DNA of 43,760 nt, from the sequence record DRR723986_9138, one strand, 5' to 3'. Under the pieces are notes generated by a model that worked only from the letters and a program-made list of their open reading frames with translations, did not search any database and had not been told where the DNA came from. Every line of letters begins with the position of its first letter. Position 1 is the first letter of the stretch. Shown in pieces: positions 3,147 through 34,736 of this stretch. The translations under genes were made by a program, and so were the position numbers.

Positions 3147-3189
3147 TAACTTGTGTGCTTGTGATAGAATGTGTGTAGCCGTCAAGCGT

Positions 3190-8481: not shown

Positions 8482-8530
8482 ATTACGTATTTCTACGGAT
8501 TGATAAAACCACCGTTTAGAGAGATTTTTG
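8482..8530 (+). promoter_or_regulatory. Operator box 1 (ATTACGTATTTCTACGGATTGA) plus downstream -7-like GATTTTTG
   Basis: The 22-mer at 8482-8503 is 20/22 identical to 25707-25728 and is an imperfect inverted repeat. Its TTG lies about 20 nt before an nAnnTTTG element (8523-8530). Confidence 0.7.
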
Positions 8531-8680
8531 TATGCGGAAAATACGTCAATGCCCTGGTTCCATTGTTGAACAGAGTTTTGATGTTCTTTTTGCGGCAATG
8601 TGATCTGAGCAACAAAAGTTGTTAGGCAAGTTCGACCGGCGCAGACAATGCAATGGCCAACAATCATCTGGAATTTGAGC

Positions 8681-10393
8681 ATGCATGAAGGTACTACAGT
8701 AAAGCTTCGACTCTGGCTACGGCTATCGCTCGTATTGTTGGTTGGGGTTGCGCTGGCATTCTTACCCATTCAGGCACAAAATGCGGGTCTGGGAACTAGC
8801 TCTCCTGACGCATCGGCTCTGTTTGAACTTTCCGCAACCGACCGAGGTTTTCTTGTACCGCGGATGACGACCGGGCAACGGGACTTGATTACCCTTCCGG
8901 CTCCAGCATTGTTGATCTTTAATGTAACCGACTCCGAATTTCAGTTCAACTTCGGCACTGCAGCTTCACCCGATTGGCAGACGCTTATCACAGCGGACGC
9001 AGTGACCAATGGTTTTTGGGCAATAGATGGAAATGCTTCTACGAACCCCGCCAATGATTATGTCGGGACTTCCGATGCCCAACCTCTCGTTTTACGCACG
9101 AATGACGTAGAAAGAGTTCGCATACTGGCGAATGGCAATCTTGGAGTTGGTACGAACAACCCGCTTTCATTGCTGAGTGTTGGTTCGACTTCACAATTTC
9201 AGGTGAGCAGTACCGGAGCAATTGTTAGTGCTGCGGGCATCACTTCAGCAGGTAATATTGATTTTACGGCTTTAAATGCCGGTGGTCTGGTGTCGGCAGC
9301 TGCCGGTACAGGCCGATTGACGCTGGCAGTAGCCGGAACGGACTATGAATCGCCTCTTGTATTTAGTAATGGCATGCAGCGACTAGGGAACGATATTGGG
9401 CTGGGCGGTTCATTGACGAGCAACACGGTAATTGCCAACGCGGGTTTTAACCTCGTGTTAAGCGGAGCCGGGCGTTTGGGAGTCGGTGTCACCAGCCCGG
9501 TGGTTAAAGTAGATGTTGATGGAGCAATTCGCATTGGTGATGCGGCCACAGCGACCAGTGGAGTTATACGTTGGTCCGGAACGGACTTTGAGGGTCATGA
9601 CGGTACTCAATGGCAATCGCTTACGAGCGGAGGAGGCGTAGGCGGCAGCGGATGGGATCTGGACGGCAATACCGCGACCAATGCGTCCTTCCTTGGAACC
9701 TTGAATAGTCAGGACTTGCGTATTCGTGTAAACAACGTGCAACGTGCGGTTGTTACGACTGGCGGAAGCGTCGGTATCGGCCTCACAGCGCCGCAGCAGC
9801 AGCTGGATATTGCCGGCGCTCTGCGCCTTGGTAATACGGCCGTTTCTACTTCCGGTAGTTTGCGTTGGACAGGAACAGACTTTGAAGGTCATGACGGAAC
9901 CGGATGGGTTTCTCTGACGCGTTCAAATACTGGCTGGACTGTTACAGGTAACACCATTAGCCCTGGAGATTATCTGGGAACCATCAATGCACAGGATCTT
10001 CCAATTCGGACGAATGGGGTTGAGCGTCTGCGCGTCAGTTCCTCCGGTAATATTGGAATTGCGACTACCAGTCCAACCGTCGAACTGGATGTCAACGGAT
10101 CAGTTCGCTTTGGTACGCGTGGCACAACAGTTGCCAATGTGATCAAAATGACTGTTAACGCCGATTTTGGTAACCTCGGATCAGATGGCTCCAGAATTGA
10201 AACGATAACCGTGCCTGGTGCACGAGTTGGTTCATCGGTTCATGTATCCCCAGCCGGACATTTGCCGGTTGGATTTATTATCGGTTATGCATTCGTATCA
10301 GCTGATGATACGGTCGAGATCAAACTGGTCAACGTTGGATTGGCTTCAGGAAATCCGGCGGCACAGGATTATTACGTTACGGTAATCGAGTGA
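8681..10393 (+). CDS. Secreted fibre-like beta-repeat protein (Bacteroidota G-I/V-G-T-x-x-P repeat type)
   Basis: Signal peptide ending IQA-Q. N-terminal GLGTSSPDASALFELSATDRGFLVPRMT. Repeated W..GN...LGT.N.QDL.IR.N.V.R, G(N/S)(V/I/L)G(I/V) and W.GTDFEGHDG..W.SLT motifs. No T9SS CTD or S74 chaperone domain seen. The ORF track starts at 8648; ATG 8681 is more plausible. Confidence 0.75.
   Translation: MHEGTTVKLRLWLRLSLVLLVGVALAFLPIQAQNAGLGTSSPDASALFELSATDRGFLVPRMTTGQRDLITLPAPALLIFNVTDSEFQFNFGTAASPDWQTLITADAVTNGFWAIDGNASTNPANDYVGTSDAQPLVLRTNDVERVRILANGNLGVGTNNPLSLLSVGSTSQFQVSSTGAIVSAAGITSAGNIDFTALNAGGLVSAAAGTGRLTLAVAGTDYESPLVFSNGMQRLGNDIGLGGSLTSNTVIANAGFNLVLSGAGRLGVGVTSPVVKVDVDGAIRIGDAATATSGVIRWSGTDFEGHDGTQWQSLTSGGGVGGSGWDLDGNTATNASFLGTLNSQDLRIRVNNVQRAVVTTGGSVGIGLTAPQQQLDIAGALRLGNTAVSTSGSLRWTGTDFEGHDGTGWVSLTRSNTGWTVTGNTISPGDYLGTINAQDLPIRTNGVERLRVSSSGNIGIATTSPTVELDVNGSVRFGTRGTTVANVIKMTVNADFGNLGSDGSRIETITVPGARVGSSVHVSPAGHLPVGFIIGYAFVSADDTVEIKLVNVGLASGNPAAQDYYVTVIE
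9569..9907 (+). repeat. Intragenic tandem duplication, period 294 nt (98 aa)
   Basis: cgttggtccggaacggactttgagggtcatgacgg at 9569 versus cgttggacaggaacagactttgaaggtcatgacgg at 9863. Confidence 0.8.
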
Positions 10394-13300
10394 TTCAGTC
10401 GAAGTTCACTCAGATATTCTCATCCAACCAATGTATCGTAACGAAAAGGCCTAACTTGAATAGCATGCAGCAAAGATTGAATGACCATACCGAAACATCT
10501 TCAATTTCATTTGCATCGCTGCGGCAAAGTGTGCTTCTGGCATTATGTGCTTTCTGTTTGCTCTTTGCCTCGTCTGAAGGCCAGGCCCAGGTGCCATTTG
10601 CACTGACCAACGGTGCTGAGCTGACACTTACCGACGGTTCACTTTTTACAGTTAATGGCGCCATTGAAATTGACGCTACTTCAACTCTAACTCAGCAAGG
10701 TACGGGCAGAATTCGTGTTGCCGGAGATTGGGACAACGATGGCACCTTTACAGCTGGAACCGGAACTGTAGAACTTCGTGGCGCAGCTACTCAGGCCATT
10801 GAAGGAGCTGCGGCGACGACGTTTAACGAAATCATCATTGCCAAGGACGCTGTCGGCAACATTGTTAACATCGACGCAGATGTTAACATACTGAACAATT
10901 TTCCGGTCTCAACAGGGACGCTTCAATTTGCAAACAATTCCGCCCGCGCAGTTACTGTGCAGGGTGGTTTAGATATTTCGGGCACTGCTGTATTCACAGT
11001 TGATGCTGCCGGTGCTGCCTTAACACACTCTATCAGTGTTGAAGGTAGTGTCACCAATGCGAATGTACTCGACTTCAATCCAGGTGGTGTAGCCGCTGCG
11101 AATCTGACGATGAACGGTTCAGGCAGTGTCGAGATTACCGGTCCCGGAGCGACCACTCGGCTTAACGGTTTAATTGCTGCTAAGTCTGGCTTGGCGGACA
11201 TCATCGAAGTTAATGCTGACAATTTTGATGCAGCCAACGGTTTCCTGGCAATTACAGGCGGTCTGGTTCACTTTGCGGGCACCTACACTCTGGCGCGCGA
11301 GTTTTTTGCCACACCCGGCTGGAATATTCCATCGGCGGGTGGTTTGTGGCTTGATAACGCCGATGTGACAATTCAGGGGCAGAATGGCAACGGAACAATT
11401 GCCGGTTTACTGCGCATCACTCAAGGCATTTTTAATGTTGGCGATGGGGCCAGCGAGAATAGCCTGTTTTATGACGACGGTGCTCAATTTGAAATCTTCG
11501 GCGGTGAGTTAAACGTTACTGCCAGACTATCCGGAACGGCTGCCGGTGATGAGATTGACTACAATCAAACTGACGGTTTTGTACGCGTTGGTAATGGTGC
11601 GCGTTCTACGAACGGCGCCTTTGGCATGTTTGACATCAGTTCAGGTTCATCGACGTTTGACTGGAGCGGTGGTGAGATTGTTCTGCAACGTGTAGTTGAC
11701 GGCAGTAACGGCCGCGAAGAATATGTTAACTTTGCTGCCAACGGGACGGTATCCGGGGGGATTCTGCGGATTGATAATCTGGATGCAGATAACTCCCGCT
11801 TTGATATTGAATCGGTTGCCGATCTTCCAGAAATATTCATGGAGTCAGCCAACCGTGCGCGCCTGCGCATGGATCGTGACATGACGGTACTTGGTGATCT
11901 CACCATTGCGGGAACTGGCGGCAACCGTTTTATTTTTGCTAATAGAACGCTAACGATTGGTGGTGACTTCATCAATAATGGCAACAATGTTAATACGATT
12001 AATGAAGGAACCACTGCCGAGATAATATTCAATGGCTCTGGGGAGCAACGAATAACTGGGAGTAATAATAACCCGACAGAATTGCCAGAATTGCAAGTCA
12101 ACAAAACAGGTGTCGGTAATCTGATACTAGAAGTTCCTGTGGAGCTGTTTGGAGACTTACGTCTCGTTTCTGATCACTTGATCGACATCGATACATATGA
12201 TCTTACGGTTGATGCTGGCGACGAAATCTTCAGTAATACCGGCTCCGCACAAGTGTTTAATTCTAGCAAACACATATTCTCAGATGCAGGCACAAATGCC
12301 GGCACTCTGATTCGCGGAGTAAGCGCAGGTGCGGCCACGCCATTTGACTTAACGTTCCCAATTGGAACGCCTAATGCATATACGCCTGGTCTTGTTCAAT
12401 TCTTGAGTGGTGGAGCCACGTTTGCAGCTGGTGCGTTCGTACAGATGCGTGCAGTTACACAGGAGCACCCGGCCGTTGAATTGACAAACGTTTCCCTTCA
12501 AAAATATTGGACTATTACAACAAATGGAATTACTCTAAATCCTCGCGGTGCTACTGTACAGTTTGAATATGTGCAGGATGAAGTGCAGGGGAATGAGGGT
12601 AGTTACGTTGTTCTTTACTTCTCACCAGCATGGCCCCAGGTTGGTGGATTCTGGCAAATCGATCCAGGTCTTTCCGATGATATCGTTCAGTTTAACTTTA
12701 AACTGTTTTACTCTCAGGAAGTAAATTCCCTGGATGGGGATTGGACTGCTGGTGAAGATGATGCTGGTATCGCTCAGTATTTCAGCCGTCAGGATGGTCC
12801 ATACGAAGACCCTGACTCCTGGTCACGTACAACTTTTGGTGGTCCTGCTTCTGCAACAACACCGAATAAACTTTCTGACCGGGTCTTTATCCGCAACCAT
12901 AGTATCAGCGTTAATGCGGACCCCGCGCCGGCACATTTGCTTGAGATCCAAGCCGGTTCTGTGATTACTGTTAACGGTGACTTTGCATTTACAGGTGATA
13001 CCTTACGTCTGGAAGATGACACTGAATTGGCGATTGCACATTCAGATGGAATCTCTGAAGTAGCAGCTTCTGGAGCCATTCAGTCCAGTATTCGCGATCT
13101 GAGTGCGAATGCAGTTTATCGCTTCATTGGAACGGCATCCCCGCAGTCAACGGGTGATGGTATCCCAAGCCCTGTCCAGTCTGTAATTATCGACAAGGCG
13201 GCTGGAAATAGTGTTGGGCTTGCTAAGTCAATCGCCATCTCCGATTCACTTGTAATTAACGATGGGACTCTAGACCTGGCCGCATTTACGATCAATGGCA

Positions 13301-16300
13301 ATAGCTCTGGGCGTAGCCTGATCATGCGTGGAGGTGAGTTACTTGTTCGCAATACGTTTCCGACAAATTATTCACCACCGACATTTACGAGTGGTGAGAT
13401 CAATTTTGCGGGTACCGGGAATCAAACCATACCCAGCTCTCTATCGAATCCAGCCGTACTGCAGTACAACGATTTGACAGTCAGTGGAGTACGTGGTCCA
13501 ACGGCTGCTATGACGCTTCGGCCGCAGGGAGAGATCCGGATTGGCAATGTCCTGGACCTGTCTGAACTGTCTTTTCAGGGGGCCGCGTTCCAGCGCTTTT
13601 TGACGGATGGTTCTACGGTCGTGTTTAATGCCTCCGGGGCACAGTCAATTCCGACTCATCCTTTAGCGCCGGCAGATTCCATCGTTAACCTCAACTACTA
13701 CAACCTGGTCACAGCAGGAAGTGGTGTCAAATCATTGACCAGTACTACGGCCAGCACATTTGTTATCCTGAACGACTTAAACATCCAGACCAATACCACT
13801 CTAGCGTCTTCCGGATTCGACATTGAAGTTCGCGGTGATTGGAATAATACGGGTGGTGTGTTTAACTCCGGAACGAACGCTGTCGTATTTCGCTCGGAGT
13901 CGCTGGGGCAGAGTAATACGGTTACGTCTCGCAGCACTACAGACAACCCGTTTTACACCGTCCTGTTCGATGGGCTCGGTGAGATTATCGTGGCTGACGA
14001 TATTCAGGTCAATGACGACTTGTTTATCGGCACGTCTGCCAGCCTGACATTGACCACATCAACTTTGTCGTTGGCAGGTGATTGGTCCAATACTGGCGGG
14101 ACTTTTTCTGCAGGGACTTCGATCGTTGAATTTAGCGGTGCTGCACAACAAAAAATCCGTTCGGCAAATCAGGGGCAAACTTTTTACGATCTTAACATTG
14201 CCAACGGTGGTTTGGGAGTAGACGCACGTCAGGTTGGCGGTGCGTCAGACGGCATTACCATTGCTAACAGTCTGGATTTGAGTGGTGGTAACTTAAACGT
14301 ACGTGGACGTCACGTTTGGACGCAGGGTGCAATTGTGCGTGCGGGTGGTACCCCAGGGCACATTGAAGGTGAACTGCGTAAAACTGTCGGCACCGATGCA
14401 CAAACCGTAGACTACGAAGTCGGATTTGGAGAATCTTATACTCCAATCACAATGGTGTTTGCCGGTACAGGTGGGACTGAAGGTTTGCTTGGCATTGATT
14501 CTGACAGCGTTACGACAAGCTCTTCTCCAATCAGCACGGGCGTTACGCCGGCTGCCAATTCATTGAACGATAGCCGTCATGTGCGCCGCCAGTGGGGAAT
14601 ATCAGTTCCCAGCGGTAGTGCTTTCGCCATTGGAGTTGACCGCACGTACGATGTTACTGCCAACTTCCTGGCGGATGATGCGCGCAACGGCGCCAATCCT
14701 TTGTTGTATGAATCACGCATCTGGACCGGCGCTAGCTGGTTGCTGCCTGATCGATTTGGTTCTCCTGTGCAGGGCCTCCGTTCCGCCACCTCAATAATCT
14801 TTGAAGAGTTAACTGAGTTCGGTACTCTGACGATTGGAGAACCTGACTTTTACAACTTCTATAGTTTGCTGGATGATGGTGATTGGACAGATGCCGCCAC
14901 TTGGTCTACCCAAGGTTATGGTGGCGCGGCTGCACCAATTTCACCGACGGCAAATTCACGCGTGTTTATCGGGGACAGTAAAACAATCATTCTCGATGCG
15001 GGCGTTACGATTGATGGTGAGTTAACACTGGACTCAACGGGTGTGTTTGATGCCGATGTATTCGTTGTTTCCGGAGCGGGAACATTCAGCATGTCGGCCG
15101 CATCAACACTTAAGACCGGGAATGCAGGTGGACTTCGCTCTGCTGCTGCATCTGGTACGATTCAGACAAGCACGCGTGACTACAACCCTGGCTCACATAA
15201 CCGCGGAACCTTTGTCTATAAAGGAGCCGTTGGATCGCAAATTACAGGTGATGGTCTTCCGGGTACTGTTGCGCGCCTCATCATTGAAAAATCTGCTGCT
15301 GATGTAACTCTGAATAATGCGGTTAACGTCAGTGACACCTGTAGCCTGGAGAGTGGCGAACTAGTCTTAGGCGCCGACCTCAATTTGCAGGGTGATTTGT
15401 TGGCGACAACAAATGCAAGTATCACTCCCCAGACTTCAACAGTAACTTTTGATGGTTCGACGGGGCAAAGCTTGGTGGCGTCGGGTACGACCTTGTCATT
15501 CTTTAACTTTACCGTGGACAAACCGATCAACACAGGTTTGTTAACGTTCGGCACGAACTCAGCCGTTTCGGTTGCTGGTACTCTGCGATTTGAAACCGGA
15601 AACGAAGCATATATCGATGCACGGACATTTACAGACTGTAACGTTATAGTTCCTGGGAGCATTGCCCGAGTAGGGTCAGGACATATCGACGGTACTCTAC
15701 AACTTAACGTACCGGCAGGCACCGCGACATCGCTATATCACGTAGGGGAAGGCGAAAACTATGTGCCTTTTACTCTTGAGTTAACAGGAGCAGGTGGAAC
15801 AGCAGGCCTGGTATCGATACGAAATGAACCCGGCCGCTATGACGGCTTAAACGACGCCAACACACCGATTGACCCAAGTCGCTATATTCCACGTTATTGG
15901 CGAATGTTGGAGCCTAGTGGCTCGACGTTTGCGCGTGGTACCAGAGCCATGACAGTAACGCTGCAAGTTCTTGATCCAGCGGACGTTGGTCTGGTGGACG
16001 CCCTGGCATGTAGTGAGATGGGGTTCTACCGTGGAGCTACGGAAGGTTGGCAGTCACTCCGTCCCAACACGACAGGTTCGAATTATCCCGCTGGTTTCGG
16101 CTGCGGTGATACGCGCTTTACCTTGGGCTCTATCGACTATGATGGTAGCGCAAATACTATAATTGCTAATGATATTCCTTCGGACTCCACTTTAGGGTCC
16201 ACAGAGTCAATCGCTGATGGTTCGACGATTCTTGGTGACTTCGTCATTGGAAACCAAAACTCGATTGTCATTACCTCCTTCTACAGTCGCACTGATGGCA

Positions 16301-24924: not shown

Positions 24925-24993
24925 TTGTCTAGTTCTTGCGTTATCCAGACCGATTAATCATGTCTTCCACGCTACTCCATTTGGTACCCGACA

Positions 24994-25635
24994 ATGCGTA
25001 TAGTAATCGCAGATGATCACGAAGTGTTTCGCCTTGGTTTGAGAACATTGCTCAAATCCGAAGAAGAAATTGAGATTGTCGGAGAAGCCTCAGACGGAAA
25101 CAGCGCTGTAGAACTGGTGCGTGAGTTACTGCCGGATGCTGCCTTGATTGACATTCTGATGCCTGAGAAGACCGGCATTGAAGCGGTAAAGGAGTTAAAA
25201 GAGACGGACAAAGACGTTAGAATCATCATGTTGACGTCTCTGGAGGATAAGTTTCATTTATCAAAAGCAATGTCAGCAGGGGCTAATGGTTATCTGTCCA
25301 AGGAAGTTGGACGGCAAGAGTTGATTGATGCACTCCATGCCGTAGTGCGCGGAGAGCGTGTTTTTAGCTCTTCAATTTTGAAGATCATGGCAAACCCCAA
25401 TGAAGTGCCTTACTTTAGCGATGAGTTTAGCATTTCAAATGTCAACATTTATTTGTCAGACCGCGAGCAGGAAATACTCAAGCTGATTTCCAAAGGCATG
25501 ACCAGCAAAGAGATTGGTGAAGCCCTCTTTATAAGCCCTCGGACCGTTGAAACACACCGCACAAATCTGATGCATAAACTCCAGATCAAGAACACTGCGG
25601 GTCTTATTCGTTTTGCATTGCTGAATCTGCCATAA
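24994..25635 (+). CDS. NarL/FixJ-family response regulator (REC + LuxR HTH)
   Basis: IADDHEVFR, DILMP phospho-Asp, GANGYLSK, LSDREQEILKLI..G.TSKEIG..LFISPRTVETHR. Confidence 0.95.
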   Translation: MRIVIADDHEVFRLGLRTLLKSEEEIEIVGEASDGNSAVELVRELLPDAALIDILMPEKTGIEAVKELKETDKDVRIIMLTSLEDKFHLSKAMSAGANGYLSKEVGRQELIDALHAVVRGERVFSSSILKIMANPNEVPYFSDEFSISNVNIYLSDREQEILKLISKGMTSKEIGEALFISPRTVETHRTNLMHKLQIKNTAGLIRFALLNLP

Positions 25636-25706
25636 CTGTTACGAATCGAAACATTAAAACCGCCTATTTTCCCGCGAAACCACCAATTTCGTGTACTGAT
25701 CCTGAA

Positions 25707-25756
25707 ATTACGTAGTTATACGGATTGAATTGAGCAGGCCTTTCGAGCTAAGTTTG
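25707..25756 (+). promoter_or_regulatory. Operator box 2 (ATTACGTAGTTATACGGATTGA) plus Bacteroidota -7 element TAAGTTTG
   Basis: Box at 25707-25728; TTG at 25725-25727, 21-nt spacer, perfect TAnnTTTG at 25749-25756. Confidence 0.75.
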
Positions 25757-25884
25757 TACTAAGCTTGGAACAGAGATTTCTTTTAAGTGGTTATCCATTC
25801 CAACGCCGTGAATAACTCAATCGCGATATCTAGCAATTAAATATATACATGCTGTCTTCCATTAATTTTCAAGGACTATTCATT

Positions 25885-28167
25885 ATGCGAATGAAGCACC
25901 AATTGAAACGACTGGCACTTGCGACCACATGCGGTCTCGCATTTGGCGCAGTCGGCGCAATGGCGCAAAATTTGAATAACAACGGCGGTACCATTAACAA
26001 CGTCGGTGATATCGTTTTCTGTACAGCAAACGGTGAGTTTCAGAGTGGTAACCCCGGCGCAGCCCTGAATGGCGATGGTCGCGTTCTCTTTGAAGAAGTA
26101 GGCAACCAATTCACCGAGCCAGGTGGTGGCGTAGGTGGACCAGGTGCTGTTGATACCGATCGTATCCCGTACGAAGTAGTTTGGACTGCGGACGCTGGTA
26201 CTCAAGTTGTTCAGGATCGTTTTTACACGAACCTGACGGTTGAAGACGATGCTGCCAAAACCATTAACGATGGCGTCTTTGTTAGCGAAGTTTACACCGC
26301 TGCCGGTGGCGACCGTACTTACAATGGCACGTTCACTTATGATGGTTCGCTCGCACAAAACATCTTCGCTGAAGTTGGTATTGGCGTTGGTACAAACCGC
26401 TACAACAACCTGCAGCTTACAGAAGCAGGTGCGAAAACTTTGCAGGCCGGCGACGCAACAACGGTTGACGGCGACCTCTTGATGGCAGCTTCCAATACAG
26501 GCGGTCTGTCTGTTGAGGGTGGTTTGACGATTGGTGATGCAGTAACGCAAGACGCTGCTGCTCCTCTGGTAATCGACGGAACGGGTGCCGCTGCTACTGA
26601 CGGTCAGTTTAACACTGGCGCTGGAGTAGGTGATTTCTCTGGTGCGGTTGCAATCAACAACGGTGGTCTTCTTGATGTTGTCGGTGCAGGTACCAACGAT
26701 TTCTCCGGCACCGTTGATGTAAATGATGGTGACTTCTTTGTTCGCACCGGCTCTGGCGATGCAACAATCTCGGGTGCCATGACTCTGGCCAACCTGGCAA
26801 CAGCTACACTGAATCTTGAAACTGGAACTGCACTCACAGTATCCGGTAGCTTGACTAACAGCCACGCCGCTGGTGTTAACGCAAACTTTGATGACGCTTC
26901 AACTGTTGCTTATACAGGTGCCGCCGGTCAATCTGTTATGCAAACTGTCGCTTCCAATCCTTACGGTAATCTCAGCACAGACAACGCTGGCAAAACTGCT
27001 GCCGGCGATGTTTACATGAGCAACAACCTTGATGTGGGTGTAACTGATGGTGCTGGTGGTGACCTTGATATGGATGGCAACACGCTGTTCATGACAGACG
27101 CCAATGCAACTGTTGACTATGATGCTACAAACTACACAGAAGTTGTTGGTGCTATGCGCCGTACGACGGATGCCGGTTTCGCTGGACCATATGTCTTCAA
27201 CAATGCTGAAACTCAGGTTTCCTTTACTGGTGGAACTGAGTACACTGGTTACTATGAAATGAATGTTCAGCCTGGAGTTGCTCCAAACAACTTTGACGCT
27301 GAGACTGATGTTGAGCGTAAAATTACTGTTGACTACGACAACACTGCATGGACAGCTACAGTTCGCGCCGGTTGGAAAGATGGTGAGCAGGGAACAGACT
27401 GGAACGTTCCAGCAGTACCTACGACTGTAGATCAACTGCGCTTCTTTGAGAACGATGGTGCTGAAGAGCAGAAAGTTGCTACAGGCCAGGCTCCTAGTCG
27501 CGACAATGCAAATACACTTCGTTATGTCGAGCTTGCCGGTATCGACGCTACAAACGTAGCATTGCCTGGTAACGCGATTAGCGAATTCTACGGAACGAAC
27601 GACCTTGTACTTCGTGGTGGACCAACAATTTTCTACGCCATTCTGGATGGTCGCTGGTCAAACCCTGGTACATGGGATGAAGGTATCGAGCCACGTGAGT
27701 ATGACAACGTAGTTGTTCAAAACGGTGTTACTGTTCACGTTGGTTATCGTCGTAATGGTGTTGATGGTACCAATCCAGCTGGTCAAAACGAAGAGGGTTT
27801 CAATCCTCTGACAGCTGACACTGAGCGTGATGGCGGTCTTGCTGCAAACGTTACGATTGAAGATGGTGGTGGCCTCCTGATCGGTTACAATGATAACTCC
27901 GATGTTGGTAATCCATTTACAGTTGATCAGAGCAACGGTTCAGTTGCTTGGGCACTTAGCTCAGGCGCTCTCCTCTCGAATGCTTCCGGTGCTGGTGCAA
28001 CAACTGCTCCAACCCCAGCTGTACTGACTTCAACGATGACTGGCAACACTGACTTCCCTGGCTTTATCAACTTCGGTAACAGTGCCGCTCTTGGTAGCTT
28101 CCAGGTTAGTTCAATCGATAACACCGGTTACCTCGCCAATGGTGGTACGCTGCGTGTTTGTGACTAA
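25885..28167 (+). CDS. Secreted beta-solenoid protein equal to one repeat unit of the giant; candidate major filament subunit
   Basis: AAGGA precedes ATG 25885 (ORF track start 25849). Signal peptide ends AMA-Q. TV.Y.G...Q.....Y.NL and FYAILDGRWSNPGTW motifs are shared with the giant. Codons look strongly biased by eye. No T9SS CTD. The CDS is secure; the subunit role is inferred. Confidence 0.75.
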   Translation: MRMKHQLKRLALATTCGLAFGAVGAMAQNLNNNGGTINNVGDIVFCTANGEFQSGNPGAALNGDGRVLFEEVGNQFTEPGGGVGGPGAVDTDRIPYEVVWTADAGTQVVQDRFYTNLTVEDDAAKTINDGVFVSEVYTAAGGDRTYNGTFTYDGSLAQNIFAEVGIGVGTNRYNNLQLTEAGAKTLQAGDATTVDGDLLMAASNTGGLSVEGGLTIGDAVTQDAAAPLVIDGTGAAATDGQFNTGAGVGDFSGAVAINNGGLLDVVGAGTNDFSGTVDVNDGDFFVRTGSGDATISGAMTLANLATATLNLETGTALTVSGSLTNSHAAGVNANFDDASTVAYTGAAGQSVMQTVASNPYGNLSTDNAGKTAAGDVYMSNNLDVGVTDGAGGDLDMDGNTLFMTDANATVDYDATNYTEVVGAMRRTTDAGFAGPYVFNNAETQVSFTGGTEYTGYYEMNVQPGVAPNNFDAETDVERKITVDYDNTAWTATVRAGWKDGEQGTDWNVPAVPTTVDQLRFFENDGAEEQKVATGQAPSRDNANTLRYVELAGIDATNVALPGNAISEFYGTNDLVLRGGPTIFYAILDGRWSNPGTWDEGIEPREYDNVVVQNGVTVHVGYRRNGVDGTNPAGQNEEGFNPLTADTERDGGLAANVTIEDGGGLLIGYNDNSDVGNPFTVDQSNGSVAWALSSGALLSNASGAGATTAPTPAVLTSTMTGNTDFPGFINFGNSAALGSFQVSSIDNTGYLANGGTLRVCD

Positions 28168-28222
28168 GAGTTCAGTTCCATTCGTGAATGGTGCTGAAAG
28201 AGGAATGACGGCATGATTCGGA

Positions 28223-28249
28223 GCCGGCTGGTCTATGCGACCAGCCGGC
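28223..28249 (+). terminator. GC-rich stem-loop after the candidate major subunit (attenuator or mRNA stabiliser)
   Basis: gccggctggtc-tatgc-gaccagccggc: perfect 11-bp stem, no clean U-tract on the + strand. Confidence 0.6.
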
Positions 28250-28379
28250 ACTTCCGGAAAAAACAGGCCCTAATTCCCGAGCCGGTTTAAGCTGCCCAAG
28301 TTTGAAAACAACGCAATGTCAAATCGCTTTTTGCCCAGTCTCAACTTCAACTCTTGATCTCCAGGTAAACCCAACAAAG

Positions 28380-30473
28380 ATGACCCAACGAATTCTCATA
28401 TTATCGCTTCTTGCTTTAGTGACGGTGCCTATGTCGGTTACCAGTCGCACGGGCGGTGCTGTGGTGAATTCCGGTCAGATTTACAATGCTGGAAGGATTG
28501 AAACTGCAACGGCACAAAGCAGTGGCGGGGACATTACGAATGAAGGTAGCCTCTTCATTAGTGGAATTGCCACGTTCCGTCAGGATACAATCGACGGCCA
28601 CGTAATCTACGATGGTGATGATCAGACTCAAGCGCAATTTATCCCGCAAATTGTCTATCAAAATCTGGAGTTCAGTGGGCGCGGTTTAAAACGGCTGACT
28701 GAACTGGATACAATCGTCACTCGTGATACGTTTCTTACCGCTTCAGGTGATGTTGAACTTGTGATACGTGAAGGGACAGAAGTTGTTACTCGTGGGCGGG
28801 TTACACATAACGGGTTTATCAACCGTGACTTTGTACATGGTAGAATCGTAATGCAAGGTGAAGAAGCGCAGAGTATCGATGGTACCGGCAGGTACGTAGT
28901 TCTTGCGCTTGACAATGAAGCTGGTAGTGATGTAGTTAATGGCGGTGGTTTTACAGTTAATCGCAGACTTGAGTTGCTGCGCGGAGCTTTCCGCAACGAC
29001 AGTGAAAACAACTTCTCTCTTGGCGATTCCGCACTAATTGTACGTAATGTTGGATCCGGAGTCTCAGATGCGCCTCTATTCGGCGAAAATGTTTCCGTCA
29101 CGTATATCGGTGATGGGAGGATTTTCTCTGGGGCAGAGCTGCCTAACAACCCGGGAACACTTAACAACCTGCGCGTTGAAACAACGGAAGGTTTGGATCT
29201 TGCTCAGTCTACAACCGTTAACGATACCTTGTATATCGGTAGCAATGTTGATACTGAGCCGGGCGATCAACAGAATGTGTTAACTCATACGAGTGTTGAA
29301 AATCCAATCTTCGGGGATGATGACGCCGAAGTGCGTGGTTCTGTAAAACGTACGCGACTGGCCGCAGGTGGAGTTCAAAATGTGTTTAACAACACACATA
29401 CATACGCTGGTTTCTCGGACGTAGAGAGCCTGGGCGGAATGTCTGCAATGACAGTTCGTATCCTACCGGATTCGCTACCACTACCTTTGACTACAAACAC
29501 TGGTGACAAGGTTCGTCGTTCCATAACGGTAACGGCCGAAGACGAGCAAGGTGAAGTTATTCAGGGCGGATTTAATGCTGAGTTTGGGTATGCCTATAAG
29601 CTTGACCAAAATGATGAATTAAATGGACTGGACACCTTAGGTGTACAACTTCAGTTAAACACTGAAGAAGGTTGGGCCAACGTAGCAGAGCCGGCTGAAA
29701 CTGTAGAAATTGCTGGGAATTGGGTGCGCGGTAGTGTGCCAAATTTACAGCGCTCCGGTTTTTACGCAATTGGCATTGGCGAGTTGATTCCAAATGCTCT
29801 GGTTGACATTCGCGTTCTCTTGGAAGGTCCGTATCGCAATGGCCGTATGGCTGCTGACCTTGCCGAAGGTGGGTTTCTGCCAGACGCTCCACCGGCTATT
29901 TACCCTTACAGCCTGGATCCGAATCGCAACTTCGTAAGCATGGGGGATTTGGGTGAGCGTCGTGATCAAATTGTTGACTGGGTCGTTGTGGAATTCCGCA
30001 CCCTACTCAGCGGTGGTGAATCGCGCTACCGGACAGGCTTGATTACCTGGGATGGAAACATTGTTGATTACCGTGACGGTCAGACTCAAATAAAGATCGA
30101 CTCCGGAACATATTATATAGTCGTGCATCACCGTAACCACCTGGCCGTTGTTACACGCGATGAGCAAGTTCTGACGCCTGAAACACATAGCTTTGACTTC
30201 ACTCGTGCGGGGCTGCTTCTTGGTGGAAGTAACGCCGTCAACCTGGTTGATGAAAACGAGACAGGGCGACAGTTCTTTGCTATGATTGGTGGAGACACCA
30301 ACGGTGATGGTGTTATTGATGAACAAGATTATGATGACTCTGCTACCGCTGCCTGGTTAAATCATGACAGCGAAGGATATATAAACCCAGATACAGATTT
30401 GAATGGTATCGTCACTACACGCGACGCAAACGTATCCTGGAACAACCGCGACAAGGAAACCCTTGCGCGATAA
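28380..30473 (+). CDS. Secreted paralog of the 772-aa protein with C-terminal LEGPY...HRNHL module and dockerin-like tandem Ca-binding loops
   Basis: Likely start ATG 28380 with signal peptide. EVRGSVKRT..VFNNTHT..VRRSITV parallels EVVGAMRRT..VFNNAET..VERKITV. C-terminal GDTNGDGVIDEQD and PDTDLNGIVTTRD loops. Confidence 0.75.
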   Translation: MTQRILILSLLALVTVPMSVTSRTGGAVVNSGQIYNAGRIETATAQSSGGDITNEGSLFISGIATFRQDTIDGHVIYDGDDQTQAQFIPQIVYQNLEFSGRGLKRLTELDTIVTRDTFLTASGDVELVIREGTEVVTRGRVTHNGFINRDFVHGRIVMQGEEAQSIDGTGRYVVLALDNEAGSDVVNGGGFTVNRRLELLRGAFRNDSENNFSLGDSALIVRNVGSGVSDAPLFGENVSVTYIGDGRIFSGAELPNNPGTLNNLRVETTEGLDLAQSTTVNDTLYIGSNVDTEPGDQQNVLTHTSVENPIFGDDDAEVRGSVKRTRLAAGGVQNVFNNTHTYAGFSDVESLGGMSAMTVRILPDSLPLPLTTNTGDKVRRSITVTAEDEQGEVIQGGFNAEFGYAYKLDQNDELNGLDTLGVQLQLNTEEGWANVAEPAETVEIAGNWVRGSVPNLQRSGFYAIGIGELIPNALVDIRVLLEGPYRNGRMAADLAEGGFLPDAPPAIYPYSLDPNRNFVSMGDLGERRDQIVDWVVVEFRTLLSGGESRYRTGLITWDGNIVDYRDGQTQIKIDSGTYYIVVHHRNHLAVVTRDEQVLTPETHSFDFTRAGLLLGGSNAVNLVDENETGRQFFAMIGGDTNGDGVIDEQDYDDSATAAWLNHDSEGYINPDTDLNGIVTTRDANVSWNNRDKETLAR

Positions 30474-30495
30474 CCAGCTGCAAACCAGGCGTAGT

Positions 30496-31800
30496 ATGAT
30501 GACGCATCGACCACATAAGCTTTCACAGGGAGACGCATCTGTCGCCAGGCGTAGCGCCTTTGCGTTTATTTGTGGCCTGCTCTTGTGTTCATTGATGAGT
30601 GTTAATGAATTGCACGCGCAGTCCGACAAAGATACGATTGCAAATGTCTCGGCAATTTTGGTAGCGCAACCACAGCCTAACCAAATAGAGCTTGATATCT
30701 GGGTAAAGAATATATCAAATAGCGAATGGCTAATGTGGGCGAATGGGACCTTTCAATTGGAGTTTCCCGGGGTCGCTATGGAGGAGTGCACAATTGAACA
30801 GCTTCCGGGCTTTTCTGCACTTCCTGCGGCCGAATACCAGATCATTCAGAATACTTTTCCAGGTAGATTGAGTATTGGGGTTCTTGGCCCCAAGAACTTT
30901 GGCGATTGTGTCGCTGTTGCGGTCGAAGATAGCGTGCGCGTCGGGCGCTTTCGAGTCTCAATACCTGAGCCAAATACTCTGCCGCTGAACATGAATTGGG
31001 TAACCCCCTTACCTAAATATCAGGCCACGGCTTTTAAAATCTTTGATGATCGCACTCCATTTTTCTATTCCGACGACAACATTGCGATGTTGGTCGGCGA
31101 GTTCGCGACATCATACGATATAAGGGATGTTGATATTCCCGACTTTCAGTTGGTTAATTTCTACGGCGAATACTTGGGTGACCGTAGAGTGCGGCTGTTC
31201 TGGCGCACCGAAACAGAAGTCTCAAACCGTGGATTTGTTATTGTTCGCGGCATTCGCCCTCTCGGGCAGGTAGATGAAGAACTAGACTTTGTTGACACGG
31301 TCGCGTGTTACGATTCTTACGAGACGCCTGATTTTGACTGTCGCCGCGTTGACCTTAATAGCCCAGGACTCAGCCTCGACCCGCTGGATTATTCTACTCC
31401 TGACACCGTTGATTTCCGCGAAGAAGAATACGTCTATCAATTGTACTATCATCACTTTGATGGTCAATTGGTATTCTTAGCTGAGACGCGCGTATTTGTA
31501 CCGAGTTCGGTTATCAGTTTTGCACAGGCGAATCCGAACCCATTCAGAAGTCGCACTATTATTGAGTATGTGGTTGACGACCGTGTGGTGTTGACGGCAA
31601 AAGTCTATGATGTTAATGGCCGCGAGGTTGAAACATTGATAGATCGGCAAATTACACCGATTGGAAGATATGAAATAGAATTTGTAGCTGCGCGGCTTAG
31701 CTCGCAAGGCCTCTATCATGTAAGGTTTACTGCATTCCCGGTTGATGATCCGTCTGTTGTAATTTCTACAGCCGATGTTAAACTACAACTAATCCGGTAA
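30496..31800 (+). CDS. T9SS type-A sorting domain protein with N-terminal cohesin-like beta-sandwich
   Basis: Start ATG 30496 follows the upstream stop; signal peptide ends LHA-Q. LVNF...LFWRTETEVSNRGF Ig/Fn3-like domain. CTD: NPNPFRSRTIIEY...VYDVNGREV...GLYHVR...KLQLIR. The cohesin-like call is my inference from the strand pattern. Confidence 0.75.
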   Translation: MMTHRPHKLSQGDASVARRSAFAFICGLLLCSLMSVNELHAQSDKDTIANVSAILVAQPQPNQIELDIWVKNISNSEWLMWANGTFQLEFPGVAMEECTIEQLPGFSALPAAEYQIIQNTFPGRLSIGVLGPKNFGDCVAVAVEDSVRVGRFRVSIPEPNTLPLNMNWVTPLPKYQATAFKIFDDRTPFFYSDDNIAMLVGEFATSYDIRDVDIPDFQLVNFYGEYLGDRRVRLFWRTETEVSNRGFVIVRGIRPLGQVDEELDFVDTVACYDSYETPDFDCRRVDLNSPGLSLDPLDYSTPDTVDFREEEYVYQLYYHHFDGQLVFLAETRVFVPSSVISFAQANPNPFRSRTIIEYVVDDRVVLTAKVYDVNGREVETLIDRQITPIGRYEIEFVAARLSSQGLYHVRFTAFPVDDPSVVISTADVKLQLIR

Positions 31801-31830
31801 TAGCTTTAACACCATATGGTTATCTAAACC

Positions 31831-33309
31831 ATGCACATAGCAAGATCATCAATACTTATATTGTGCAGCCTCGCTGGATTTATTCTGCCGGGGCCTTTGC
31901 TATTGTGTGATACCGATACGACCAGAACTCTTGCAGACGTCGATGTTGCGACAGTTGAAAACCCGTCTTCACCTATCGAGATTCCTGTCCAAAATGAATT
32001 GATCGGTGCGGCTACGCGCATATCAATCTTGCCTAATAAAGATACAGTTCTGACTACTTCTGGTTATGGCAACCTGTGGTTTGGAATATATGGGGGACCA
32101 AATTTTGGAACCTACCTCGGTGAGTTAAATCTGGCCTTAAATCGCTCTTCCCAGGTGCGCAACTTAGGCAGAGGATTCGGATCCGGTAGCTCGATTGGAT
32201 ATTTCATCGGCGCTATGGCAGAGTGGAAAAAACAAGATTGGCAATGGGGCTTCGGACTCAATGTCTCCTTTCTTGATGTGCGCGATGGGGCCTTCGAGTC
32301 TCTGGAAAACCAGTCGGTCATCGCTGAGTATGAAGGTGAGACACAATTTCGATATTTCACAATCTCGCCGACGGCCAGGTTGGATGTCATTGGCGGGTTG
32401 TATGCTTTCGGGGGGCTCGACTTTGAGTTGAATGTTGGGTCGGAAGCACTAATCATCCCGACTATTGATACTTCTGCCGTTATCCGCGAAGAGCGCAATG
32501 TTGATCTTGAAGCAAATGGCTTCCGCATGGGACTGCACGTAGGCGCGGCATATGAGTTCTTAGCTCTGGAAATAGCCGATAAAGCGCGTGTGCGACTCAG
32601 TCCATTCGTAAGTTTCCACTACGGATCAGAAGTTTCGAACAATCTGAATTCAGACTTGAACCTTGGGTTCATGCGTTTAGGGCTGACTCTAAAAGTTGGG
32701 GCAAACAGCGAACAACGCACCGTTAGGCGCTATGATCCGGACTTCATTGACCCACCAATCTATTTAGCATCGTTGCCGCAGCGGTTTGATTATGAAATTC
32801 CGGCCTTGCGACCAGATGAACGCATCGAAGCAATTCAGTTGGCCGTGATTGAACGACCCGTTATACAGACTCCTGCGCCGGATACAGTTGTTACTGAGCC
32901 ACCAGTGATAGCCAGTGCCGAAGTGCGGACTCCGCAACCTCAACGACAGCCGATTGAGATTGCCGGATTGAATGAAGAATTTGTCCTTGGAATACAAGGC
33001 GGTGCTTTGAGCACAGATTTAACGCAAACGTCTTATGCATATCTGGATGCAGTGGCCAATTTTTTGAAGCAAAATCCATCTGTTGAAGCACAGATTGCAG
33101 GTTATACGGATAACTTTGGTACTCCCGAAGAAACCCAAAGAGTTTCTGAGTTGCGTGCCAGCCACGTCGTAAATTATCTGGAATCAAAAGGCATCAGTCG
33201 TAGCCGCTTGTTTCCATCAGGTCTTGGTGCTCGTTCCGCTATCGCTAATAACATTACAGAAGAAGGCCGGCGACGCAACAGGCGTGTAGGTGTCACGCTG
33301 ATAGAGTGA
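31831..33309 (+). CDS. OmpA-family protein: beta-barrel + Pro-rich linker + peptidoglycan-binding OmpA_C domain
   Basis: GYTDNFGT...SELRASHVVNYL..KGI...GLG....ANNITEEGRRRNRRV. The central region has alternating amphipathic strands (WFGIYGG, WGFGLNVSF, LYAFGGLDF, RLGLTLKVG). Confidence 0.88.
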   Translation: MHIARSSILILCSLAGFILPGPLLLCDTDTTRTLADVDVATVENPSSPIEIPVQNELIGAATRISILPNKDTVLTTSGYGNLWFGIYGGPNFGTYLGELNLALNRSSQVRNLGRGFGSGSSIGYFIGAMAEWKKQDWQWGFGLNVSFLDVRDGAFESLENQSVIAEYEGETQFRYFTISPTARLDVIGGLYAFGGLDFELNVGSEALIIPTIDTSAVIREERNVDLEANGFRMGLHVGAAYEFLALEIADKARVRLSPFVSFHYGSEVSNNLNSDLNLGFMRLGLTLKVGANSEQRTVRRYDPDFIDPPIYLASLPQRFDYEIPALRPDERIEAIQLAVIERPVIQTPAPDTVVTEPPVIASAEVRTPQPQRQPIEIAGLNEEFVLGIQGGALSTDLTQTSYAYLDAVANFLKQNPSVEAQIAGYTDNFGTPEETQRVSELRASHVVNYLESKGISRSRLFPSGLGARSAIANNITEEGRRRNRRVGVTLIE

Positions 33310-33530: not shown

Positions 33531-33718
33531 CATTATATATGCACCGCGTGTGTAATGGGATGAGCATATTCAAGTCGATAATTCCGTCTGGCATTTGGAT
33601 GGCTTCCCGGCGTATCGACAGCCCAGAGTGATCCCAGTGTTGTCCCAGCGTGGGCCGTTGTGCTCTGCGAACTGCACAGACAAACTTTTTTACATCTTCA
33701 CTAAATCTTGGCAAACAA

Positions 33719-34363
33719 ATGTACAAAGCGCTTGTAGCAGATGACCATCAGATTCTTCGTAGCGGATTAAAACTCTTTCTTTCATACAGCATGGATATGG
33801 AAGTAAGTGAAGCTCAGAATGGTGAAGAAGCACTTGCGCAGATCGATAAAACCGATTTCGACATTGTACTTTTAGACCTTTCGATGCCGGGCAAAGCTGG
33901 TTTGGATCTGTTGAAGACTCTTCGAAGTGCCAATTCAGGTTTGCCGATCCTGATTTTAAGTGGACAACCGGAAGAAAACTATGCTGCTCGTGCTCTTAAA
34001 GCGGGTGCAAGCGGTTATGTCAACAAAGCAGCCGATACTATTGAACTGATGACTGCCATCCGTAAGTGCCTGGCGGGTGGGCGATATGTTAGTCCATCGC
34101 TGGCCGAGAAGCTGATTGAAGATGCTACGCGTGAATCTGAAGACCTTGCGCCACATGAAACGCTTTCAGACCGTGAGTTCCAAATTTTGTGTCAGATCGG
34201 CTCAGGTAAGTCGGTAGGTGGGATTGCCCAGGAACTGCATTTATCAGTTAAAACTATTAGTACTTACCGCAAGCGGATCCTGGAGAAGATGAAACTTGCG
34301 ACTAATTCAGAGTTGATGCAGTATGCCCTAAAGCATCGATTGCTTGAGAAAGTTGCCGACTAA
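33719..34363 (+). CDS. NarL-family response regulator, UvrY/GacA-like
   Basis: MYKALVADDHQILR (ATG 33719), DLSMP, ALKAGASGYVNK, PHETLSDREFQI, LSVKTISTYRKRILEKM. Confidence 0.95.
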   Translation: MYKALVADDHQILRSGLKLFLSYSMDMEVSEAQNGEEALAQIDKTDFDIVLLDLSMPGKAGLDLLKTLRSANSGLPILILSGQPEENYAARALKAGASGYVNKAADTIELMTAIRKCLAGGRYVSPSLAEKLIEDATRESEDLAPHETLSDREFQILCQIGSGKSVGGIAQELHLSVKTISTYRKRILEKMKLATNSELMQYALKHRLLEKVAD

Positions 34364-34453: not shown

Positions 34454-34736
34454 CTCTAAATTTGATTTTGATCTTACTCCTGCCTAACTTCCAAGCTTCA
34501 TATATGCCGATTCACGCCAAGAATCGGACACTTCAATAAATCCGTAAGTAACTGGTAAGATTGGGGAAAACTTTTTGTAACCCGCCCGAAAACTGTGTGT
34601 TCTCTGGCGGAGTTTGGCGATAAATCGATTGATTTCAACGGATTGAGTCCGTTTGAGCCAGGTAAATCGAAGCGAAAATACTTGTAAATCATAGTAATAA
34701 ACTTACTTCCTTTCTTTGCACCTTATGGAGCATTCT

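Follow-up and report, generated by a model that had tools for sequence, protein, structure and literature searches.

What do three secreted proteins of very different lengths build together, when their chains appear to begin or stop in the middle of a β-helix? The question is raised by seven plus-strand genes in a 43,760-nucleotide stretch of sequence record DRR723986_9138 (hereafter the window, meaning this whole stretch), which encode a 581-residue tail-fibre-like protein, a giant protein of 4844 residues, a NarL/LuxR-type response regulator (RR1), proteins of 772, 723 and 465 residues (referred to by these lengths) and a 492-residue OmpA-like protein (Table 1). A sequence-only reading of the window had cast them as a surface filament, in which the C-terminal rung of one chain complements the N-terminal rung of the next, from the giant through many copies of 772 to 723 and a cohesin-like anchor. 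Having compared the locus with its relatives, we put the probability at about 0.6 that it specifies a segmented β-helical fibre, whose separately encoded, Sec-exported pieces are joined noncovalently end to end and held by a cohesin-dockerin-type tether. Names from Pfam and NCBIfam were few, namely a GEVED domain in the giant (residues 2176 to 2248), OmpA_C in the 492-residue protein and a sub-threshold type IX secretion system (T9SS) sorting domain in 465. Signal-peptide-like starts were read by eye in all of the proteins except RR1. The closest relatives of the locus were found in metagenome-assembled genomes labelled Candidatus Kapaibacterium, Ignavibacteria, and Chloroherpeton; Kapaibacterium is classified under Bacteroidota.

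Pairwise comparison of the giant, 772, and 723 by BLAST gave E-values of 1e-5 to 1e-8 without composition correction and nothing at E<=1e-3 with it. Family alignments were assembled from related loci and database matches: A2 for 772 (74 sequences), A4 for 723 (52 sequences), and A5 for the C-terminal 800 residues of giants (32 sequences). The hidden Markov model (HMM) of the 772 family matched 723 at 3e-20, and that of the 723 family matched 772 at 1e-12. Using hhalign, the giant tail was aligned with the 772 family (probability 95.9, E 5.8e-9, 297 columns) and with the 723 family (probability 93.5, E 2.3e-7), both alignments spanning the helix end and a β-sandwich and that of 772 also taking in F-Y-x-I/S-x-x-G-x-W-x-x-P-x-T-W. 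From the family profiles we conclude that the three proteins are homologous and have a β-helix plus sandwich module in common, as judged from their sequences. An HMM of the sandwich and the FYS-G-W-W motif located seven modules in the giant (residues 633 to 812, 1323 to 1507, 1760 to 1987, 2414 to 2582, 3101 to 3284, 3556 to 3732, and 4361 to 4559; independent E-values 1e-9 to 1e-76); of the motif itself there are seven copies in the giant, one in 772, and none in 723. The predicted architectures are thus seven helix-sandwich units plus a terminal helix for the giant, one such unit plus a 178-residue helix stub for 772, and one unit plus a C-terminal domain of about 230 residues for 723. Searched whole with hmmsearch, the giant gave no match to the 772 and 723 profiles, and segments of it gave only weak helix matches. 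Profile searches of the Protein Data Bank (PDB) returned nothing for the 772 family, and for the 723 and 465 families only rows at E 0.3. An exhaustive profile search for the 772 family returned 2479 proteins when the cut-off was E<=1e-3 and 317 representatives when it was E<=1e-30. Five related genomes have one copy each.

The giant ends in ...NDATLINEGRLKIGS and 772 in ...NTGYLANGGTLRVCD. Across relatives of both families the chain stops 0 to 3 residues past N-x-G-x-I-E-I-G, and in 52 aligned giant- and 772-family C-termini N36, N42, G44, and G49 are almost invariant. Mature 772 (after A-Q) and mature 723 open with rungs of the N-x-G-x-I-x-N-x-G-x-I type. These termini bear out the earlier claims that 772 probably begins and ends mid-solenoid, that the giant and 772 end in the same rung, and that 723 begins with a rung of the same type. 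In five related genomes, a profile of the 50 C-terminal residues (the C-tag) had two matches apiece, the giant and 772, and no others, which argues that it is no general sorting signal. In small-database searches, the giant C-tag profile matched the N-terminus of mature 723 (independent E-value 4.6e-4), and the 772 C-tag profile matched the N-termini of 723 and 772 at 0.011 and 0.022. A 7651-residue relative contains 22 internal C-tag matches, so that the tag is seemingly an ordinary internal rung at which the chain happens to stop.

One line of evidence for docking comes from natural fusions. Among the best 150 of the 772-family representatives, six were 772::723 fusions of 1451 to 1581 residues. 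In five of these the 772 profile reaches its end (position 732 to 733 of 735) and the 723 profile starts at the mature N-terminus (position 22 to 29), with a junction ranging from an overlap of one to two residues to a three-residue gap and no signal peptide in between. The junction resembles two tandem 18-residue rungs, ...SLQNASLVSNGGRIEVSQ followed by SLVSTGLIRNNGTVSSRA... The sixth, P0163, differs: its match to 772 extends only to profile position 650, and about 130 residues separate it from the start of the 723 match. A fusion of 1471 residues is one unbroken open reading frame (ORF) on two metagenome contigs, with a 465 orthologue downstream of it. No 723::465 fusions were found in a search for longer proteins with the 465 N-terminal domain, which is weak evidence.

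Mature 772-family proteins have few Cys, mostly in local pairs (profile positions 43/138, 328/371, and 387/466). A Cys in the last 55 residues co-occurs with an otherwise unpaired Cys in the N-terminal region, the latter being present in 18 of 22 sequences that have the former compared with 3 of 52 that lack it (Fisher 1e-10); in the 772 of the window, whose mature chain starts at Q40, Cys are at residues 58 and 771. On a tree built from the middle alignment columns only, the C-end state changed at least 11 times, and across nine phylogenetically independent contrasts the N-side state agreed in 8.2 on average (median sign-test p 0.008). Position covaries as well as presence. In 25 N/C pairs, the N-side Cys moves toward the N-terminus as the C-side Cys recedes from the C-terminus (r = -0.87). 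The pairs fall into seven position classes, in which 1, 5, 7, 13, 15, 18, and 20 residues following the C-side Cys go with mature N-side positions 21, 16, 14, 7.5, 6, 3, and 4, respectively, the sum always being 20.5 to 24, or roughly one rung (Spearman -0.96, p 0.00045). Paired Cys occupy the same place in the rung motif, e.g., ...NNGCIEVGE-COOH with QxFxNxxSGCFKF... A constant sum together with the same motif place is what would be expected for consecutive rungs, were the mature start of an acceptor to come directly behind the end of a donor, as happens in the fusions.

The same signature extends to the giant. At eight loci from four lineages the giant has a C-terminal Cys, and in all eight the 772 Cys is at the same offset to within one residue (giant/772 offsets by lineage -8/-8, -2/-2, -2/-3, and -2/-2). 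The first Cys of two full-length giants with a C-terminal Cys are at residues 468 and 344, and neither has one near its N-terminus. A lone N-terminal Cys on mature 723 was seen in two lineages only, at the position that corresponds to the N-side Cys of the 772 found with it. In the six lineages that obey the one-rung rule (window/L001/L002, L010/11, L014/18/19, L034, L035, and L051), the N-terminus of mature 723 carries none, and the giant of the window lineage likewise does not end in a Cys. With no such Cys on 723, the C-end Cys of 772 would find a partner only on the N-end of a 772; an intramolecular bond along a rod-like helix seems sterically unlikely. These sequence patterns would favour some stacking of 772 on 772. 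Elsewhere in the 723 family, a single conserved Cys in the C-terminal domain (about residue 579 in window numbering, A4 reference 553), without a partner in the mature protein, was noted in 20 of 52 members; the 723 of the window lacks it.

Gene linkage was scored at 80 related loci from Kapaibacteria, Ignavibacteria, and Chloroherpeton, the denominators being loci with enough flanking sequence. The order giant-772-723-465-OmpA was conserved across them, as would be anticipated from the claim of a linked gene set. 723 follows 772 at 70 of 70 loci and 465 follows 723 at 65 of 65, with the OmpA-like gene within 2.6 kb of 465 at 56 of 62. Sampling 301 genomes of the phylum turned up full-length 723 and 465 in the same 12, side by side each time, and a full-length 465 beside a partial 723 match in a thirteenth (G082). 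At 30 of the 56 loci an extra gene of about 1.9 kb, missing from the window, precedes the OmpA-like gene. At the one locus examined for it (L064, 15543-17435), this gene encodes a WD40 β-propeller, with a C-terminus that by eye resembles a T9SS sorting domain; the WD40 gene between the 465 and OmpA-like orthologues is likewise absent from L001 and L002.

A giant lies directly upstream of 772 at 43 of 60 loci with room. At seven further loci (L007, L008, L024, L027, L029, L045, and L068) its place is taken by a mini-giant of 105 to 110 mature residues. Behind its signal peptide a mini-giant opens as a giant does (Q-x-L-x-N-x-G-A...V-x-V-N-G), and it closes with the C-terminal tag. In four full-size giants, the mini-giant profile has weak matches (1e-4 to 1e-6) at either end, in the N-terminal region and at the C-terminus. 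Two other genomes have frames of 1073 and 1285 residues with the tag, located elsewhere. The donor therefore seems, from these sequences, to be exchangeable, its length ranging from about 105 to 7651 residues and its two ends being conserved. The role given to the giant in the earlier proposal is weakened, a protein of giant size being dispensable at the seven loci where minis replace it. The giant orthologues of L004 and L079 have their frame in two pieces (506+639 and 489+2793 residues) on these metagenome-assembled contigs, which may reflect a frameshift, an assembly error, or a real split.

How might such a fibre be held? The 465 family was modelled with AlphaFold2 (predicted local distance difference test score 92.4, predicted template modelling score 0.78), giving three β domains, and the model was compared with 48,161 representative chains by VIA-align. 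Model residues 30 to 237 or so matched 11 cohesin entries (Z 9.2 to 10.4, root-mean-square deviation (rmsd) 3.1 to 4.4, 125 to 145 residues aligned), including 4uyp_A (Z 10.4, rmsd 3.2, 135 aligned), 2vn5_A (Z 10.3), and 5nrk_A (Z 10.3). Cohesins, whose fold is a nine-stranded jelly roll, made up nearly every row aligning to the N-terminal domain alone, with most of each cohesin covered. Residues from about 200 to 322 matched fibronectin type III (FnIII) domains, and residues 322 to 419 the T9SS C-terminal domains (CTDs) of PorU (Z 10.4, 20% identity), PorZ (9.8), and mirolase (9.0). Foldseek with the whole model returned only generic FnIII arrays at low TM-score. A weak TIGR04183 match (E 0.0035, below cut-off) and PF18962 matches in 12 of 48 family members agree with the CTD assignment, and the models present 465 as a cohesin-like domain, an FnIII domain, and a T9SS type A CTD, in line with the cohesin-like T9SS cargo of the sequence-only reading. 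SprA of the T9SS translocon (TIGR04189) scored above cut-off in five of five related genomes.

The tail of 723 is a domain of about 230 residues ending in two D-x-N/D-x-D/N-G-x-I-x-x-x-D Ca-loop repeats. Pfam Dockerin_1 (PF00404) was matched by 5 of 52 family members (best E 1.8e-5) and is carried by a short, 47%-identical homologue (P0016), which fits the dockerin-like nature ascribed to the tail earlier. In the nearest Atlas clusters, 15 to 19% of members carry Dockerin_1; the 723-family profile matched the dockerin chain 5lxv_B weakly (E 0.31). Fold, motif, adjacency, and co-occurrence together suggest that the 723 tail contacts the cohesin-like domain of 465. Among the five structural proteins from the 581-residue one to 465, only the last carries a T9SS CTD, as had been stated: neither Pfam nor NCBIfam detected one in the other four, and relatives gave the same result, with 0 of 32 for giant C-terminal pieces of 800 residues, 0 of 16 for the 772 family, and 0 of 52 for the 723 family. 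The T9SS anchor, the GEVED domain, and the tail-fibre-like protein suggest a location on the cell surface.

The whole 723 tail domain also occurs on other Bacteroidota proteins, and was always C-terminal on the eight unrelated ones examined; five of these were scanned with Pfam, and none matched a CTD. Carriers (G298, G102, G172, G234; L084-L087) include a CAP-domain protein, an M6 peptidase, an FG-GAP/LamG/Ig protein, and a DUF1349/fn3 protein. Several adjoin small CTD-bearing proteins, with unconvincing adjacency statistics. Such a small CTD protein, found beside a 723-tail protein at three of four other Bacteroidota loci, was considered and discounted, because the part of the 465 profile that matches (about 204 to 410) is the common pre-CTD plus CTD region, present in 194 of 301 genomes in many copies each. 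The tail domain (LEGPY...dockerin-like) could nevertheless be a general surface-tethering module.

The homology, chain ends, synteny, fusions, and Cys covariation, as read from sequence, and the modelled folds of 465 are established, and the following assembly would accommodate them. A donor (the giant or 772) would end in an uncapped β-helix rung, and the same type of uncapped rung would open an acceptor (772 or 723) as soon as its signal peptide is removed. The last rung of the donor would stack in register on the first rung of the acceptor and the helix would continue across the protein boundary, a disulfide locking the joint in some lineages. The order would be giant (or mini-giant cap), 772, and 723, with extra 772 in series where 772 is unfused. 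At the base, the dockerin-like tail of 723 would bind the cohesin-like domain of 465, a T9SS cargo fixed on the cell surface, and the OmpA-like protein (PF00691, E 7e-18; PDB profile matches down to 1.5e-27) may tie the base to the wall. Three independent kinds of comparative evidence, namely the fusions, the Cys covariation with its one-rung geometry, and the strict synteny, argue for one solenoid running through separate subunits; the anchor adds support at the level of folds. The seamless fusions and the covarying Cys likewise speak for the C-to-N rung complementation of the sequence-only reading.

Several observations weigh against this assembly. That the giant, 772, and 723 have a β-helix fold with uncapped ends is read from sequence only, and the fission products of one ancestral gene would retain matching ends for a while without reassembling. 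At 10 of the 60 loci with room, no giant lies directly upstream of 772 and no mini-giant was detected there. Two Cys classes break the one-rung rule, one pairing N-side profile position 102-104 with C-side -2 (sum about 58; the N-side Cys of 723 gives about 43) and the other pairing position 40 with -47 to -55 (sum about 60), and 4 of 22 sequences with a C-side Cys have no N-side partner. At the base, Pfam Cohesin (PF00963) was matched by none of 48 465-family members at E<=0.01, and Dockerin_1 goes unmatched in the window's own 723, which gave EF-hand_5 at E 0.5 and nothing more. Neither a CTD nor any other recognizable outer-membrane export signal is present in the giant, 772, or 723, and assembly could take place in the periplasm.

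Whether 772 is a true polymerizing major subunit, present in many head-to-tail copies between a 723 base and a giant tip in a pilus-like filament of variable length, is less certain than in the sequence-only reading. All six rule-obeying lineages leave the 772 C-end Cys only a 772 N-end as partner, the giant of the window lineage has no terminal Cys, and 772 has an operator-bearing promoter region of its own; yet the six fused representatives leave 772 no free donor end, so that polymerization is not generally required, there is one copy of the gene per genome, and an intramolecular Cys pair is conceivable. A many-copy filament as the general form is accordingly doubtful in our view, and a 772 polymer is plausible in some lineages, not in general; support for the earlier claim comes from Cys pairs where 723 offers no partner, and the claim does not extend to the fused lineages, in which 772 presumably cannot polymerize. 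It is improbable that the proteins are instead independent paralogous adhesins left by gene fission and fusion, with ends that are relics, no docking, and a Cys pair that is self-closing or unrelated. In its favour, splitting, fusion, and resizing are common among genes for multi-module adhesins, lengths here span about 105 to 7651 residues, and pairwise similarity is low. Relic ends, however, would hardly be held 0 to 3 residues from the last rung, with chain starts within a few residues of the signal-peptide site, across families that are only 27 to 40% identical to the 772 of the window; nor would the C-end Cys be expected to have changed state at least 11 times together with an N-side Cys at one-rung spacing, or the terminal Cys of the giant to track that of 772 in two full-length giants that have no Cys near their own N-terminus. 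Self-closure of a helix rod of about 390 residues plus sandwich also seems geometrically unlikely.

Equally, the C-terminal rung might be a sorting or secretion tag read by a dedicated outer-membrane component, for example the OmpA-like protein or the T9SS. It is strictly C-terminal and conserved, the proteins bearing it have no known outer-membrane export signal, and the cluster holds a conserved outer-membrane-type gene. The rung is nonetheless confined to two proteins per genome, is internal in natural fusions whose gene is retained, is an ordinary internal rung in larger relatives, and has a Cys that covaries with the N-terminal rung of 772; we regard this as very improbable, more so than relic ends. 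Returning to the segmented fibre, we propose only tentatively, at somewhat better odds than the many-copy filament, that split-solenoid fibres form a previously unrecognized class of surface appendage, made of a cap or giant, n connectors, a base, optional disulfides, and a T9SS cohesin-like anchor.

A 22-mer, ATTACGTAnTTnTACGGATTGA, stands upstream of the 581-residue gene and again upstream of 772, and nowhere else in the window; two sites were obtained in 0 of 100 shuffles, although the sites themselves had supplied the pattern. Within the 22-mer lie two direct TACG(T/G)A half-sites, spaced 11 bp apart, and the two upstream regions have further blocks in common. The core TTACGTAnnnnTACGGATTG is kept upstream of 772 orthologues in L001-L005, whose proteins are 41 to 72% identical, which supports the operator that the sequence-only reading had assigned to both operons. 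The second copy lies about 25 nt before a TAnnTTTG-like box, which we take to resemble the Bacteroidota -7 element consensus. A scan for sigma-70 promoters and terminators gave fewer promoter-like sites than shuffled sequence and about as many terminator-like ones. RR1 combines a NarL/FixJ receiver (PF00072, 5.6e-28) with a GerE/LuxR helix-turn-helix (PF00196, 1.1e-20), and the half-site spacing would suit a dimeric NarL-type regulator such as RR1. Both transcription units carry this operator-like site, probably read by the regulator encoded between them. RR1 orthologues in relatives are found at the RR1 position or upstream of the fibre gene.

The 581-residue protein matched the tail-fibre PHROGs phrog_9942 (E 4e-15) and phrog_18345 (1e-10), supporting the fibre likeness noted earlier, and its gene position suggests that it may form the tip. 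The stop of its gene overlaps the start of the longest giant ORF by 4 nt. In the three genomes whose upstream DNA was examined, the giant comes after a gene at the 581 position and one or more LuxR-type regulators. Relatives of the 581-residue protein precede a giant or mini-giant in G001, G003, L008, and L068; in G002, a 496-residue gene product at this position has no phmmer match to it. PADLOC assigned the fibre proteins to no defence family.

Table 1. Features of the locus and its flanks, in window coordinates
Feature	Position	Strand	Description
Protein of >1047 residues	3-3146	+	5'-open ORF, N-terminus cut by the window edge
Operator-like 22-mer ATTACGTAnTTnTACGGATTGA	8482-8503	+	Upstream of the 581-residue gene
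581-residue secreted tail-fibre-like protein	8648-10393	+	Signal-peptide-like N-terminus, by eye
4844-residue giant	10390-24924	+	Signal peptide, 7 modules, GEVED, terminal helix ending in a putative open C-terminal rung (donor)
RR1, 213-residue NarL/LuxR-type response regulator	24994-25635	+	Response_reg and GerE
Operator-like 22-mer ATTACGTAnTTnTACGGATTGA, second copy	25707-25728	+	Upstream of the 772-residue gene
772-residue connector subunit (putative)	25849-28167	+	Putative open N-terminal rung (acceptor), helix, sandwich, FYAILDGRW, 178-residue helix stub with putative open donor rung
723-residue base subunit (putative)	28302-30473	+	Signal peptide, putative open N-terminal rung (acceptor), helix, sandwich, C-terminal domain of ~230 residues
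465-residue anchor candidate	30403-31800	+	Signal peptide, cohesin-like domain, FnIII-like domain, T9SS type A CTD (modelled)
492-residue OmpA-like protein	31831-33309	+	N-terminal part (β-barrel suspected) and peptidoglycan-binding OmpA_C
RR2, NarL/LuxR-type response regulator	33650-34363	+	28% identical to RR1
1510-residue protein	34716-39248	+	Paralogue of the next; ends in a T9SS CTD-like domain
Protein of >1355 residues	39696-43760	+	Runs off the window end

Three housekeeping genes, encoding a β-eliminating lyase, a thioesterase, and a GH3 protein, lie 5' of the seven genes. Further upstream, the protein cut by the window edge has a Pro/Glu/Ala-rich first part, coiled-coil (SMC-like) matches, and a weak, Cbp1-family adhesin-like C-terminus (E 6e-8, below cut-off). 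Downstream, RR2 sits between the OmpA-like and 1510-residue genes, a position that in many relatives holds a CheY-like single-domain regulator, followed at the one locus examined (L064) by a CHASE-PAS histidine kinase. The two paralogues beyond it are 52% identical over about 1380 residues and have a pre-CTD FnIII-like segment in common with 465 (E 8e-10); their orthologues come after the cluster in L001, L002, and L005. Tandem Repeats Finder detected no tandem repeats in the window DNA, which also gave no Rfam or tRNA matches.

Should the segmented fibre be confirmed, it would explain a conserved cluster of about 25 kb of "hypothetical protein" genes in Kapaibacteria, Ignavibacteria, and Chloroherpeton-like bacteria. 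It would also place cohesin-dockerin-type tethering on a T9SS cargo and bear on how proteins without a CTD arrive at, or are retained on, the surface of Bacteroidota. Swapping the donor (from about 105 to >7000 residues) and varying the number of 772 copies could tune how long the fibre is and what adhesive content it has, and nature would have supplied sequence-defined rules for orthogonal solenoid-solenoid joints, the Cys ladder marking residue pairs across the joint. No description of this gene cluster was found in the literature covered, which took in part of PMC3362086 and from which subscription journals are absent.

As the earlier reading had it, hallmarks of type IV, type V, and chaperone-usher pili were wanting: no chaperone-usher, type IV, type V pilus, or curli family was among the Pfam and NCBIfam matches of 12 window proteins. 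Nor did these databases reveal a two-partner secretion (TPS) domain, TpsB, an autotransporter barrel, or a type I secretion system (T1SS) signal, the sole AIDA match being at E 0.2. Known routes to extracellular fibres are donor-strand exchange, sortase ligation, type IV assembly, and amyloid nucleation. If correct, the joint proposed here would add another route, in which folded β-helices are left uncapped, each protein's end serving as template for the beginning of the following one. This assembly principle is not known from bacterial surface appendages, and it fits no known pilus or adhesin secretion class.

The closest parallels differ in instructive ways. In curli, the major subunit CsgA grows on the surface-bound nucleator CsgB, β-solenoid units stacking end to end on a homologous cell-bound template. 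The principle of stacking on a cell-bound homologous subunit would be the same, and growth here would be distal. Curli subunits, however, are small, disordered before assembly, and exported by CsgG, and no csg gene is present at this locus, whose units would be large, prefolded helix-sandwich proteins in a defined hetero-order with a cohesin-dockerin-type anchor, and have no sequence relation to curli. The long tail fibre of phage T4 (gp34-gp35-gp36-gp37) is built of successive segments from different genes, gene order matching fibre order. The proposed fibre would likewise use separate gene products as segments in gene order, and the 581-residue protein matches tail-fibre PHROGs; T4 segments are trimers connected via junction domains with the help of chaperones, whereas here one β-helix would be continued in a system that is cellular and is predicted to be Sec-dependent and surface-anchored.

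The base recalls the cellulosome, given the cohesin-like fold of the 465 N-terminal domain and the two Ca-loop repeats of the 723 tail. Unlike cellulosomal modules, the 465 family goes unrecognized by the Pfam Cohesin model and the 723 repeats end a larger conserved domain; the scaffold, in a diderm, would be a T9SS cargo rather than a scaffoldin anchored to an S-layer or by sortase, and the contact is a predicted one. Type V pili of Bacteroidota (FimA/Mfa) have anchor, stalk, and tip subunits, in which C-terminal elements complete the next subunit by strand exchange. They belong to the same phylum-level group and follow a similar logic of anchor, stalk, and tip, with a C-terminal element completing the next subunit, but the proteins described here have no lipoprotein signal, FimA/Mfa match, or protease-processing site, and the proposed joint is a stacking of solenoid rungs rather than the insertion of a strand into an Ig-like groove. 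Finally, TpsA/FHA proteins, autotransporter passengers, and giant T1SS adhesins are long, secreted, and rich in β-helix, and the giant by itself would be annotated as one of them. Those adhesins are single chains; here, one helix would be split over several genes.

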